In this document: piece by piece, positions 35,496-41,528 of the stretch
Position numbering within the stretch: the stretch's first letter is position 1
Layout of the letters: every line of letters begins with the position of its first letter
Assembly (NCBI RefSeq): GCF_048403405.1
Contig: NZ_CP183129.1
Source: Escherichia coli
GTDB taxonomy: Bacteria; Pseudomonadota; Gammaproteobacteria; Enterobacterales; Enterobacteriaceae
DNA: 64,000 nt
Strand: one strand, 5' to 3'
Made by a program: the position numbers and the translations under genes
The notes under the pieces: model-generated
Told to the model about the DNA's origin: nothing
The model's database searches: none
The model's input: the letters and a program-made list of their open reading frames with translations, nothing else

Positions 35496-35761
35496 ATGCC
35501 CCTCACAATCTTTTAAAGATTAAGTGTAGGACAGTACACAGGTTAACCAGCAAAAGGATTTGTCATTTTTTCGTCAGTTGTATTATTCCCCTTCAGGATT
35601 GTAAGGGGATGTTTTGCATCGTTTATCGATAACGGGTAGGATGCTGCGCCGATAGTTTTATACCCATAAAGAATAATGGTGATAACTATCATCGCCAGGA
35701 TGAATAAACATTGTTCATGGCAACTTATATGACTTTTTCATTAAAGCAATCAGGGAGAGCA

Positions 35762-37373: not shown

Positions 37374-38435
37374 TTACAGCGCAATACGAATCACATCATC
37401 CGGCTGGGTTGCTTCCTGCTGTTTAGTGGATTTTTGTTTCACACTGACATACAGCGTTTTACCATCGGCAGACAGCGCCAGGCTGTTCGGATGAGTCGGC
37501 GTATCGAACGTTTTCACCACTTTATAGCTTTTCGCGTCAATCACACTGACTTTACCTGCCTGACGATGCGTTACGTAGGCTTCATTACGCGCCGGGTTAA
37601 ACAGCACAGCCAGTGATTCCGGTGCCGCAACCTTCGCCAGAATATTGCCATTACGGGTATCGACCACTAACACTTCTGCGGCTTTAGAATCGGTGATAAA
37701 TGCACGCTGCCTGGCGGTATCAAGGCTAATGTTGATAAAGAAGTGCTCTTTGCCGTCATCCAGCAGCTTTTTACGGCTGAGGATTTTATTGTCGGCGGTG
37801 TCGATGGTAATCAATTCGCCGTCAGCGTTAGTGGTGTAAAGACGTTTGCCTTTGCTATCCAGCGCCAGACCGGTACTCATTTTACCGGTGTTCTGGATGG
37901 CGGTTTTCAGTTTGATATTCTCGCCATCAACGACCCAAATCACGCTCTCTTTACCAATACCACTGATGTAAACGGTGTTCGTGGCATCATCAGCTACCAG
38001 CTCACGCGGTTGCAGCGGGCGCACCTCTTCCGTGCGCTTACGATCATCCAGCACCAGACGGCCTTTCACTTCGCCCGTTTTGGCATCTATCGCCGTGACC
38101 GCGCTGTTTACAGTGTTACCAAACCACAACGTCTGAGTCGTGTTATTGATGGTGGCACCAAACGGCTTGAGATCGTTATGGATCGCCTGCGTCACTTCCA
38201 GAGTAACCGGATCAAGACGATAAACCACGCCGCCTTTATCCAGTTTGCGGCTTTGCGAAGTGGCGAGCCACAGCGCGTTCTCCTGCTGGCTATAAGCCAT
38301 TTCGTAGGCACCTTTACCTACCGCTTTACGCAGCATTTCTTCTGCAGCCTGCGTACTGAATGATGAAGCAACAAGCAATGAACCTAACAGTAATGAACCA
38401 CGCAGGCGCGATGAAAACAGATGACGTAAATGCAT
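37374..38435 (-). CDS. yncE: Periplasmic beta-propeller (PQQ-like repeat) protein
   Basis: 353 aa with signal peptide; recognised as YncE. Confidence 0.92.
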   Translation of the reverse strand: MHLRHLFSSRLRGSLLLGSLLVASSFSTQAAEEMLRKAVGKGAYEMAYSQQENALWLATSQSRKLDKGGVVYRLDPVTLEVTQAIHNDLKPFGATINNTTQTLWFGNTVNSAVTAIDAKTGEVKGRLVLDDRKRTEEVRPLQPRELVADDATNTVYISGIGKESVIWVVDGENIKLKTAIQNTGKMSTGLALDSKGKRLYTTNADGELITIDTADNKILSRKKLLDDGKEHFFINISLDTARQRAFITDSKAAEVLVVDTRNGNILAKVAAPESLAVLFNPARNEAYVTHRQAGKVSVIDAKSYKVVKTFDTPTHPNSLALSADGKTLYVSVKQKSTKQQEATQPDDVIRIAL

Positions 38436-38518
38436 GACGACTCCCTTTGATGAACCGATATTTTTGCTGCTTCACAATGCTTCGCTAAGCGTAATCATCG
38501 TTACGCTCTTGTTATAAA

Positions 38519-38537
38519 TGGGAATGGTAATCATTAT
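38519..38537. promoter_or_regulatory. Candidate Fur box in the divergent yncE/yncD promoter region
   Basis: gggaatggtaatcattatt matches about 15 of 19 positions of GATAATGATAATCATTATC; yncD is a TonB-dependent receptor and yncE is iron-regulated in K-12 (from memory). Confidence 0.4.
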
Positions 38538-38676
38538 TTTCTCAAATGTGGAGCATTTCTTGCCGTTACGACTACAATTTTCTCAATTACTTAACGTATC
38601 GTGCCGTTTCGTTTTCCATATATTTACAATTTTATTACCATGGCGGCGTTTTCCCATTCTTAACTTGGCTTTTTTC

Positions 38677-40779
38677 ATGAAGATTTTTTCCGTCCGACAG
38701 ACCGTTTTGCCCGCACTGCTTGTCCTTTCCCCCGTTGTTTTTGCCGCTGATGAACAGACCATGATTGTCAGTGCCGCACCGCAGGTGGTTTCAGAACTGG
38801 ATACCCCAGCAGCCGTGAGCGTGGTGGATGGCGAGGAGATGCGCCTGGCAACACCGCGCATTAACTTGTCCGAATCACTGACCAGCGTGCCTGGTTTGCA
38901 GGTACAAAACCGGCAGAACTATGCGCAAGATTTACAGCTGTCGATTCGCGGATTTGGCTCCCGCTCCACTTACGGAATTCGCGGTATTCGCCTGTATGTG
39001 GACGGTATTCCCGCCACCATGCCCGACGGACAAGGGCAAACATCCAACATCGATTTAAGCAGTGTACAAAATGTGGAAGTGCTGCGCGGCCCCTTCTCTG
39101 CTCTGTATGGCAACGCGTCTGGCGGTGTAATGAATGTCATCACCCAGACCGGACAACAGCCACCAACCATTGAAGCCAGTAGTTACTACGGCAGTTTTGG
39201 CAGCTGGCGCTATGGGCTGAAAGCAACAGGCGCAATGGGCGACGGCACTCAGCCTGGCGATGTCGATTACACCGTCTCAACCACGCGCTTTACGACCCAC
39301 GGCTATCGTGATCATAGTGGCGCACAGAAAAATTTAGCCAATGCCAAACTGGGCGTACGCATTGATGACGCCAGCAAATTAAGCCTGATTTTCAATAGTG
39401 TGGATATCAAAGCAGATGACCCAGGTGGGCTAACCGAAGCAGAATGGAAGGCGAATCCGCAACAAGCGCCACGCGCTGAACAGTACGACACGCGAAAAAC
39501 CATCAAGCAAACTCAGGCTGGGTTGCGCTATGAACGTAGCCTGAGCGCACAAGATGATATGAGTGTGATGATGTATGCCGGGGAGCGAGAAACGACCCAG
39601 TACCAGTCAATCCCGATGGCACCACAACTTAACCCGTCGCATGCGGGCGGCGTGATTACTCTGCAACGCCATTATCAGGGGATAGACAGCCGCTGGACAC
39701 ACCGTGGCGAGCTGGGCGTTCCGCTCACGTTCACTACCGGCCTGAACTACGAAAACATGAGTGAAAATCGCAAAGGCTACAATAACTTCCGCCTGAATAG
39801 CGGCGTGCCGGAATACGGGCAAAAAGGTGAGTTGCGCCGTGACGAACGCAATCTGATGTGGAACGTCGATCCCTATTTGCAGACACAGTGGCAGCTGAGC
39901 GAAAAACTGTCGCTGGATGCTGGCGTGCGCTACAGCTCCGTATGGTTTGATTCCAACGACCATTACGTTACTTCGGGTAACGGCGATGACAGCGGTGATG
40001 CCAGTTATCACAAATGGCTACCTGCCGGTTCGTTAAAATATGCAATGACCGATGCCTGGAATATCTATCTGGCAGCCGGGCGAGGTTTTGAAACGCCGAC
40101 GATTAATGAGCTGTCTTATCGTGCTGACGGTCAAAGCGGTATGAACTTTGGTTTAAAACCATCCACCAACGATACAATTGAGATCGGCAGTAAAACGCGT
40201 ATTGGTGATGGGCTGCTTAGTCTCGCATTGTTCCAGACCGACACCGATGATGAAATTGTAGTCGATAGCAGTAGCGGTGGGCGTACGACTTACAAAAATG
40301 CCGGAAAGACCCGTCGTCAAGGCGCTGAGCTGGCATGGGATCAACGTTTCGCGGGAGATTTTCGTGTAAAAGCGTCCTGGACCTGGCTCGATGCGACCTA
40401 TCGCAGCAATGTTTGCAATGAACAGGATTGTAACGGTAATCGGATGCCAGGGATCGCCCGTAATATGGGCTTTGCGTCGATAGGTTATGTACCGGAGGAT
40501 GGCTGGTATGCAGGTACGGAAGCGCGTTATATGGGCGATATTATGGCAGATGATGAAAATACGGCCAAAGCGCCGTCTTATACTCTCGTCGGCTTATTCA
40601 CCGGGTATAAATACAATTACCACAATTTAACTGTGGATTTATTTGGTCGTGTCGATAATTTATTCGATAAAGAATACGTTGGTTCTGTCATTGTCAATGA
40701 GTCAAACGGGCGATATTACGAACCTGCGCCCGGGCGAAATTATGGTGTCGGCATGAATATTGCATGGCGATTTGAGTAA
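38677..40779 (+). CDS. yncD: TonB-dependent outer-membrane receptor
   Basis: 700 aa from MKIFSVRQTVLPALLVLSPVVFA within ORF 38518..40779; TonB box region, C-terminal ...NIAWRFE. Confidence 0.93.
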   Translation: MKIFSVRQTVLPALLVLSPVVFAADEQTMIVSAAPQVVSELDTPAAVSVVDGEEMRLATPRINLSESLTSVPGLQVQNRQNYAQDLQLSIRGFGSRSTYGIRGIRLYVDGIPATMPDGQGQTSNIDLSSVQNVEVLRGPFSALYGNASGGVMNVITQTGQQPPTIEASSYYGSFGSWRYGLKATGAMGDGTQPGDVDYTVSTTRFTTHGYRDHSGAQKNLANAKLGVRIDDASKLSLIFNSVDIKADDPGGLTEAEWKANPQQAPRAEQYDTRKTIKQTQAGLRYERSLSAQDDMSVMMYAGERETTQYQSIPMAPQLNPSHAGGVITLQRHYQGIDSRWTHRGELGVPLTFTTGLNYENMSENRKGYNNFRLNSGVPEYGQKGELRRDERNLMWNVDPYLQTQWQLSEKLSLDAGVRYSSVWFDSNDHYVTSGNGDDSGDASYHKWLPAGSLKYAMTDAWNIYLAAGRGFETPTINELSYRADGQSGMNFGLKPSTNDTIEIGSKTRIGDGLLSLALFQTDTDDEIVVDSSSGGRTTYKNAGKTRRQGAELAWDQRFAGDFRVKASWTWLDATYRSNVCNEQDCNGNRMPGIARNMGFASIGYVPEDGWYAGTEARYMGDIMADDENTAKAPSYTLVGLFTGYKYNYHNLTVDLFGRVDNLFDKEYVGSVIVNESNGRYYEPAPGRNYGVGMNIAWRFE

Positions 40780-40813: not shown

Positions 40814-41528
40814 TTGTGCACAGAAAACCCCCAGCTAGGCTGGGGGTTCCGGAAAGCTTTCAGCTTTAAGCCAGTTATTAAAACCCCTTTTGATTTGTTA
40901 AAACACCTTGCGGTCTGGCAACTGCAAGTGTCAAACAAGAAATCAAAAGGGGGTCCCAATGGGGAACGAAAAGAGCTTAGCGCACACCCGATGGAACTGT
41001 AAATATCACATAGTTTTTGCGCCAAAATACCGAAGACAGGTGTTCTACAGAGAGAAGCGTAGAGCAATAGGCAGTATTTTGAGAAAGCTGTGTGAGTGGA
41101 AAAGTGTACGGATTCTGGAAGCTGAATGCTGTGCAGATCATATCCATATGCTTGTGGAGATCCCGCCCAAAATGAGCGTATCCGGCTTTATGGGATATCT
41201 GAAAGGGAAAAGCAGTCTGATGCTTTACGAGCAGTTTGGTGATTTGAAATTCAAATACAGGAACAGGGAGTTCTGGTGCAGAGGGTACTACGTCGATACG
41301 GTGGGTAAGAACACGGCGAAGATACAGGATTACATAAAGCACCAGCTTGAAGAGGATAAAATGGGAGAGCAGTTATCGATTCCCTATCCGGGCAGCCCGT
41401 TTACGGGCCGTAAGTAACGAAGTTGGATGCAAATGTCAGATCGTGTGCGCCTGTTAGGGCGCGGCTGGTAAGAGAGCCTTATAGGCGCATTTGAAAAACC
41501 TCCGGCTATGCCGGAGGATATTTATTTA
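40814..41528 (+). mobile_element. IS200-like insertion sequence, copy B (inverted relative to copy A)
   Basis: Near-identical to the reverse complement of 1680..2394 with a few substitutions; boundaries +/-3 bp. Confidence 0.85.
40959..41417 (+). CDS. tnpA: IS200/IS605 family Y1 transposase TnpA
   Basis: 152 aa from MGNEKSLAHTRWNCKYHIVFAPKYRR; differs from copy A at a few residues (e.g. D3N, LAFYG to QVFYR). Confidence 0.9.
   Translation: MGNEKSLAHTRWNCKYHIVFAPKYRRQVFYREKRRAIGSILRKLCEWKSVRILEAECCADHIHMLVEIPPKMSVSGFMGYLKGKSSLMLYEQFGDLKFKYRNREFWCRGYYVDTVGKNTAKIQDYIKHQLEEDKMGEQLSIPYPGSPFTGRK

Follow-up and report, generated by a model that had tools for sequence, protein, structure and literature searches.

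The 242-bp interval that forms the whole intergenic region between yncE and pqqU (yncD) of Escherichia coli is very probably a cis-regulatory region of yncE, in which a Fur operator, a leader hairpin and a RyhB-pairing box lie next to each other on the minus strand. The Fur box is a known element, which the initial annotation of this DNA attributed to the wrong gene, and the palindrome beside it is a real and apparently undescribed hairpin of the yncE leader, which stands next to a probable RyhB site (Table 1). Sequence matches, conservation, covariation of the stem with its strand bias and the conserved complementarity to RyhB were computed in this work. The literature supplies the binding of Fur at yncE with the repression of this gene, the independence of pqqU from Fur, and the activation by RyhB through the region -80 to +24.

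Table 1. Features of the yncE-pqqU region, with positions in the analysed window of 64,000 nucleotides and yncE mRNA numbering from the putative start
Feature	Position	Strand	Remarks
yncE coding sequence	37374..38435	-	ORF, RefSeq annotation; 7-bladed beta-propeller periplasmic protein
yncE Shine-Dalgarno AAGGGAG (38441..38447) and ATG (38433..38435)	38433..38447	-	from sequence; conserved AAAGGGAGTCGTCATG
Probable RyhB pairing site GAAGCAUUGUGAAGCAG, +33..+49	38467..38483	-	complementary to RyhB core (nt 42-57); duplex over RyhB nt 41-58; K-12 1523259..1523275
Part of the RyhB box, GAAGCAUUGUG	38473..38483		
RNA hairpin, yncE mRNA +9..+28	38488..38507	-	7-bp stem, hexaloop CGAUGA; eighth G·U pair 38487/38508
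Putative yncE transcription start (A)	38515	-	80 nt before ATG; K-12 1523227; based on a single described construct and a single database offset
Fur operator of yncE	38520..38538	-	minus (yncE-sense) strand AATAATGATTACCATTCCC; -5..-23 from the putative start; 15/19 consensus
Putative yncE -10 hexamer TACCAT	38524..38529	-	inside the Fur box; TACTAT in most genera; fits start 38515
Putative yncE -35 hexamer TCCACA	38547..38552	-	17-bp spacing to TACCAT; within the near-invariant GCTCCACA block
Predicted pqqU core promoter	38612..38641	+	-35 TTTTCC 38612..38617; -10 TACCAT 38636..38641
pqqU (yncD) coding sequence	38678..40779	+	ORF, annotation; true ATG 38678, protein starts MKIFSVRQ; outside the Fur-controlled unit

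The Fur operator and the promoter of yncE

Several RefSeq chromosomes match the 501 bases around the site with 100% identity, and 5411 of 5426 complete genomes contain them. The RefSeq annotation of the identical DNA names the flanking genes yncE and pqqU, which is the current name of yncD, in the same arrangement as in K-12, so the genes had been correctly named in the initial annotation, as the ORFs also indicate. Directly downstream of pqqU, where K-12 has mcbR, lies an ORF for an IS200-type transposase (40908..41417, plus strand; Pfam Y1_Tnp, E = 3.8e-38). For comparison, 80 loci encoding YncE relatives were collected from Enterobacteriaceae genomes, and 73 distinct leaders were aligned.

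The sequence GGGAATGGTAATCATTATT matches the Fur consensus GATAATGATAATCATTATC at 15 of 19 positions and is the best match in the 64-kb window. It is also the only 19-mer there with four mismatches or fewer, with a mean of 0.23 such sites in 30 dinucleotide shuffles. The string and its reading as a Fur box, both given in the initial annotation, hold; its coordinates, 38519..38537, are one base off. The core AATGATT is found in all 79 loci that have enough upstream sequence. In 76 of these its distance to the yncE ATG is 94-107 nt, and the three others, with the core at another distance, have a shortened leader. In every other genus the full 19-mer departs from the consensus at 3-6 positions, and a second register 6 bp away often accompanies it. 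Strong and deeply conserved, this operator also has a published record: Fur binds upstream of yncE in ChIP experiments (PMC4676285, PMC7157518), yncE belongs to both Fur iModulons (PMC10164565) and is induced 16-fold on iron limitation (PMC8896160), and a fur mutant overproduces YncE (PMC5120174). The gene is absent from the Fur-site catalogue of Chen et al. 2007. A further Fur-like sequence, AATAATGGTGATAACTATC at 35672..35690 just upstream of ansP, matches 14 of 19 consensus positions; chance alone would give about 1.5 sites of this quality in the window, and it is probably not meaningful.

The Fur box is the operator of yncE and not a control element of the divergent pqqU/yncD. Divergent Fur-controlled pairs that share their boxes do exist, fepA-fes being an example, and the box could in principle repress pqqU/yncD together with yncE, as the initial annotation had interpreted it from the fit of a Fur site to a TonB-dependent receptor gene. 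YncD is such a transporter, and seven of the nine TonB-dependent transporters of E. coli are Fur-regulated (PMC7193533); a review also notes overlapping head-to-head UTRs for yncD and yncE (PMC7154689). However, YncD is reported to be neither Fur-regulated nor iron-induced (PMC7193533) and to be the TonB-dependent importer of PQQ (bioRxiv 10.1101/2022.06.07.495086), which removes the receptor rationale. The position of the box also speaks against a shared function: it covers the putative -10 hexamer of yncE, is separated from the predicted pqqU start by about 110-130 bp and from the pqqU ATG by 140 bp, keeps a nearly fixed distance to yncE, and persists in nine Citrobacter loci where yncE has no yncD beside it. 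Control of both genes by this box is therefore improbable. An AATGATT motif about 255-285 nt upstream in some genera, considered as a second Fur box near yncD, was rejected: it proved to be the start codon region of yncD, ATGAAAATCATT, in reverse complement.

The operator of yncE resembles the classical Fur operators of cirA, fepA and fhuA, which share the consensus, in its 15 of 19 matches, in the overlapping second register seen in many genera, in its position over the -10 hexamer and spacer, and in the published Fur ChIP signal with iron- and Fur-dependent repression. It differs from them in that its product is a periplasmic beta-propeller of unassigned function and no known iron transporter, and in that the divergent TonB-dependent receptor gene beside it stays outside its control.

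The yncE start was placed at 38515 from two sources. According to the supplement of Wang et al. 2015 (PMC4666370), the segment from -80 to +24 relative to the start codon was cloned behind a constitutive promoter as the "entire 5' UTR" of yncE. RegulonDB, as quoted in the Reg-Seq supplement, has a MarA site of weak evidence at -41.5 of yncEp. A marbox-like element at 38547..38566, with its centre at 38556.5, gives the start 38515 in agreement with this offset. Transcription would thus begin at 38515 from the -10 and -35 hexamers assigned in Table 1, and, given this start, the span of the Fur box from -5 to -23, which includes the -10 hexamer, corresponds to a classical occlusion arrangement. 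The -35 block GCTCCACA is conserved in nearly all genera. The TCCACA/TACCAT promoter was missed by a simple promoter scan, and the Cappable-seq supplements gave no matching coordinates. If the alternative marbox at 38588..38607 (13/14) were used, the start would be at 38556, and the hairpin described below would still be transcribed. The hexamer TATAAC (38511..38516) was rejected as a -10 element, since the start would then fall inside the stem, against the covariation of its outer pairs, and would also conflict with the leader of 80 nt.

Other elements of the region are also conserved. The marbox-like sequence ACGGCAAGAAATGCTCCACA at 38547..38566 (11/14) overlaps the yncE -35 hexamer, and a MarA site at this place was not recovered by Reg-Seq. 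The near-invariance of GCTCCACA, which is embedded in this sequence, exceeds the apparent need of a -35 hexamer with four of six matches. In the half of the interval that is proximal to pqqU, the block 38588..38607 (ACGGCACGATACGTTAAGTA on the minus strand, TTAACG-N8-CGTT on the plus strand) is conserved across genera as TTAACG-N4-GTGC-N-GTTAA. It has 13 of 14 matches to the MarA/SoxS/Rob marbox consensus, forms a 6-bp inverted repeat in most genera and immediately precedes the -35 hexamer predicted for pqqU. To our knowledge, no regulator of pqqU is known. The predicted pqqU promoter holds a conserved CpxR-like tandem, GTAAA-N5-GGAAA (minus strand, 38627..38613), and both yncD and yncE are listed as CpxR-responsive in a published screen (PMC9600279).

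A covarying hairpin in the yncE leader

The palindrome GCGTAATCATCGTTACGC is present at 38489..38506 as the initial annotation had given it, and the perfect repeat extends to 7-bp arms, AGCGTAA-N6-TTACGCT. Taken alone it is marginal against chance: an inverted repeat with 7-bp arms and a loop of 3-8 nt occurs in 6.5% of shuffles of the 242-bp region. It is the covariation across species that gives it significance. Its assignment as a promoter element did not hold, as it lies downstream of the putative yncE start and its arms covary as the stem of a yncE-sense RNA.

RNAalifold, run with no hint, predicts exactly these seven pairs from the 73 leaders, and compensatory double changes are found in all seven. 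Of the alignment cells that belong to the stem, 94.3% are paired; this share drops to 34-53% in controls that slide the 3' partner by 1-3 columns. Double-change cells number 118, against 10-21 in the slid controls. None of 500 shuffles reached the observed covariation score, a control that overstates the significance because the aligned sequences are related; the argument is carried by the slid control and by the number of distinct stem types, which is 58 among 73 sequences. The arms read GCGUAA/UUACGC in Escherichia, GCAAAA/UUUUGC in Citrobacter, GGCAAAG/CUUUGCC in Enterobacter, CGCGGUG/CGCCGCG in Kluyvera and GCGGAA/UUCCGU in Salmonella. Wobble cells amount to 66 G·U and 8 A·C on the yncE-sense strand, so the hairpin is folded and selected on that strand. 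The geometry, a stem of 6-8 bp with a loop of 6 nt, folds in six genera, and the hairpin makes the 5' domain of the minimum free energy fold of the 80-nt leader. The hexaloop has the consensus C-N-A-N-G-A, with CCAUGA in 35 of the 73 leaders. This pattern of substitution indicates that selection at 38488..38507 is on RNA pairing and not on DNA sequence.

The same data bear on the reading of the palindrome as DNA. If it were the operator of a dimeric transcription factor, which is roughly what the initial annotation implied, it would bind a second regulator of the yncE/yncD promoters. The inverted repeat is perfect over 7 bp and no more than 30 bp from the core promoter, and CpxR (PMC9600279) and MarA have been proposed as other regulators of the region. 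Palindromic operators are recognised by conserved half-sites, and across orthologous promoters these half-sites are not conserved: the arms occur in 58 versions, from GCGTAA/TTACGC to CGCGGTG/CGCCGCG, with only their complementarity kept, the 66 G·U cells would be mismatches in DNA, and the conserved part is the asymmetric loop and not the arms. An operator of this kind is thus very improbable.

Just as improbable is a second, weaker Fur site that would extend an array downstream of the promoter. The motif GTAATCAT is common to the palindrome and the main box, and Fur sites are often found in arrays. However, the best 19-mer at this place has seven mismatches, which is below the chance level, as the window has 22 sites with six, and the arms vary freely in other genera around a loop, C-N-A-N-G-A, that is no Fur hexamer.

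The RNA hairpin could also hide the start of a small upstream ORF that controls yncE. In E. coli and Citrobacter, eight codons run from an AUG in the loop to a UGA inside the RyhB box (AUG AUU ACG CUU AGC GAA GCA UUG UGA), and a stretch AAGAG/AAAGG lies 8-9 nt upstream of this AUG. The probability of such an ORF is very small: the AUG is absent in at least 17 of the 73 leaders, which have loops such as CGAAGA, CCAGGA and CAACGA, frame and length differ among genera, the Klebsiella and Enterobacter ORFs extend into yncE in another frame, and conservation is at the level of the nucleotide and not of the codon.

Other candidates were rejected. An intrinsic terminator does not fit the yncE strand, where the stem is followed by UAGCGAAGC, with no U run. 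A terminator-like match on the plus strand has a weak T run, and both it and the promoter-like matches there are consensus matches on the strand that is disfavoured by the wobble bias. A kissing interaction between the loop and the start codon (CAUGA:UCAUG) depends on a central U that is not conserved.

The hairpin of the yncE leader appears to be undescribed, with none found in Rfam or in the accessible literature. A search of this region against Rfam up to E = 10 gave no credible match (the best scored 14.8 bits, where the gathering score is 50), and the loci of eight other genera gave no match at the gathering threshold.

A probable RyhB pairing site beside the hairpin

The box that begins four nucleotides 3' of the hairpin stem is the most conserved part of the leader, with near-invariant columns GAAGC..UGU. 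In E. coli it forms a predicted duplex of -20 kcal/mol with RyhB nucleotides 42-57, and in nine other genera the duplex has about -20 to -31 kcal/mol and always involves RyhB nucleotides 40-65. The best RyhB duplex covers the box in all 73 leaders, with a mean of -23.2 kcal/mol, against -14.7 kcal/mol for shuffles, with the E. coli (K-12) RyhB sequence used for all genera. For E. coli alone, the advantage of the duplex over shuffles is only slight (p about 0.04). The weakness of the E. coli duplex alone may be the reason for the poor rank of yncE in CopraRNA, where it is 834th with an energy of only about -5 kcal/mol (2019 review, PMC7154689).

RyhB raises both the translation and the mRNA level of yncE (PMC4666370, PMC8896160). 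A fusion with a constitutive promoter that carries only -80 to +24 of yncE is described as still responsive to RyhB (PMC4666370), and yncE was recovered by RIL-seq and MAPS, as cited in PMC8896160 and PMC7154689. Together with the conserved complementarity, this points to the box as the probable RyhB pairing site. No published definition of a pairing site on yncE was found in the open-access literature that names both.

Three loci, from Pseudescherichia vulneris and relatives (L030, L036 and L038), have a leader about 40 nt shorter, which lacks hairpin and RyhB box alike, and they keep the Fur box and yncD. This joint loss fits a single, dispensable post-transcriptional module formed by hairpin and RyhB box. 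Nine Citrobacter loci (L009, L010, L012, L014, L017, L019, L020, L024 and L078) have yncE with Fur box, hairpin and RyhB box and no yncD/pqqU upstream, so the divergent pair is not universal.

RNAalifold was applied to the full set, to the leader with 75 nt of coding sequence and to two subgroups, and in none of these did a conserved fold connect the ribosome-binding site with the hairpin or the box. The opening by RyhB of a conserved fold that sequesters the Shine-Dalgarno sequence was rejected, as the minimum free energy fold of E. coli has only a weak, species-specific one and RNAalifold gives none. Near the start codon, the GUCGU that precedes the yncE AUG is complementary to RyhB nucleotides 36-40, and the first yncE codons (AUG-N3-UUACGUCAUCUGU; 38433..38414 of the window, and orthologues) are conserved across genera at the nucleotide level.

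The yncE leader can be compared with shiA and cirA, which are activated by RyhB through pairing with the 5' UTR at a place that precedes the ribosome-binding site. In shiA, RyhB opens an inhibitory leader structure. The yncE site is similar in its location, 20-50 nt upstream of the Shine-Dalgarno sequence, and in its use of the RyhB core. Unlike in shiA, no conserved fold occluding the ribosome-binding site was found in yncE, and its sole conserved structure is the hairpin 5' of the pairing site. As with cirA, yncE is repressed by Fur at the promoter and activated by RyhB at the leader (PMC4676285, PMC8896160).

Two proposed levels of iron control of yncE and their meaning

In the proposed mechanism, the Fur operator would overlap the -10 hexamer and the spacer of the yncE promoter, and Fe2+-Fur would therefore block RNA polymerase when iron is plentiful. 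The palindrome would be transcribed as positions +9 to +28 of the mRNA and would fold into a hairpin of 7-8 bp with the conserved hexaloop, and the box at +33 to +49 may pair with the core of RyhB, a Fur-repressed sRNA, with activation passing through the 80-nt leader. With operator and box in this arrangement, iron limitation would act twice: Fur would leave the promoter and RyhB would act on the leader.

The hairpin may have a structural role, either in holding the adjacent RyhB/Hfq landing site in single-stranded form or in shielding the leader against decay; this is put forward tentatively and with some doubt. Much less probable is that the hairpin with its conserved loop is recognised by an RNA-binding factor that senses iron, such as apo-aconitase, in an IRE-like manner and in concert with the adjacent RyhB site. 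The IRE hairpin has a hexaloop CAGUGN and a bulged C five pairs below it. Like the IRE and the stem-loops bound by bacterial aconitase, the yncE hairpin is 5'-proximal in an iron-regulated mRNA and has a loop of six nucleotides, and the C at loop position 1 and the G at position 5, both conserved, could form a cross-loop pair like that of CAGUGN. This resemblance is a general one, and there are differences: the yncE loop is C-N-A-N-G-A and not CAGUG, and the stem is uninterrupted, so that neither CAGUGN nor a bulged C is found. If the IRE-like reading were true, a protein would add a third layer to the iron control of yncE, and enterobacterial leaders would have a new motif.

The Fur box itself is nothing new, as the control of yncE by Fur has been on record since 2003, with confirmation from ChIP; what changes is the gene assigned to it, which is yncE and not the TonB-dependent receptor, a PQQ importer outside the Fur regulon. 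For yncE, which was ranked poorly by target prediction in the 2019 review, a concrete and conserved RyhB site is now proposed. YncE is a conserved vaccine-candidate antigen of unassigned function and its gene is among the few activated by RyhB, and the leader architecture defined here makes the mechanism of this activation directly testable by mutation.
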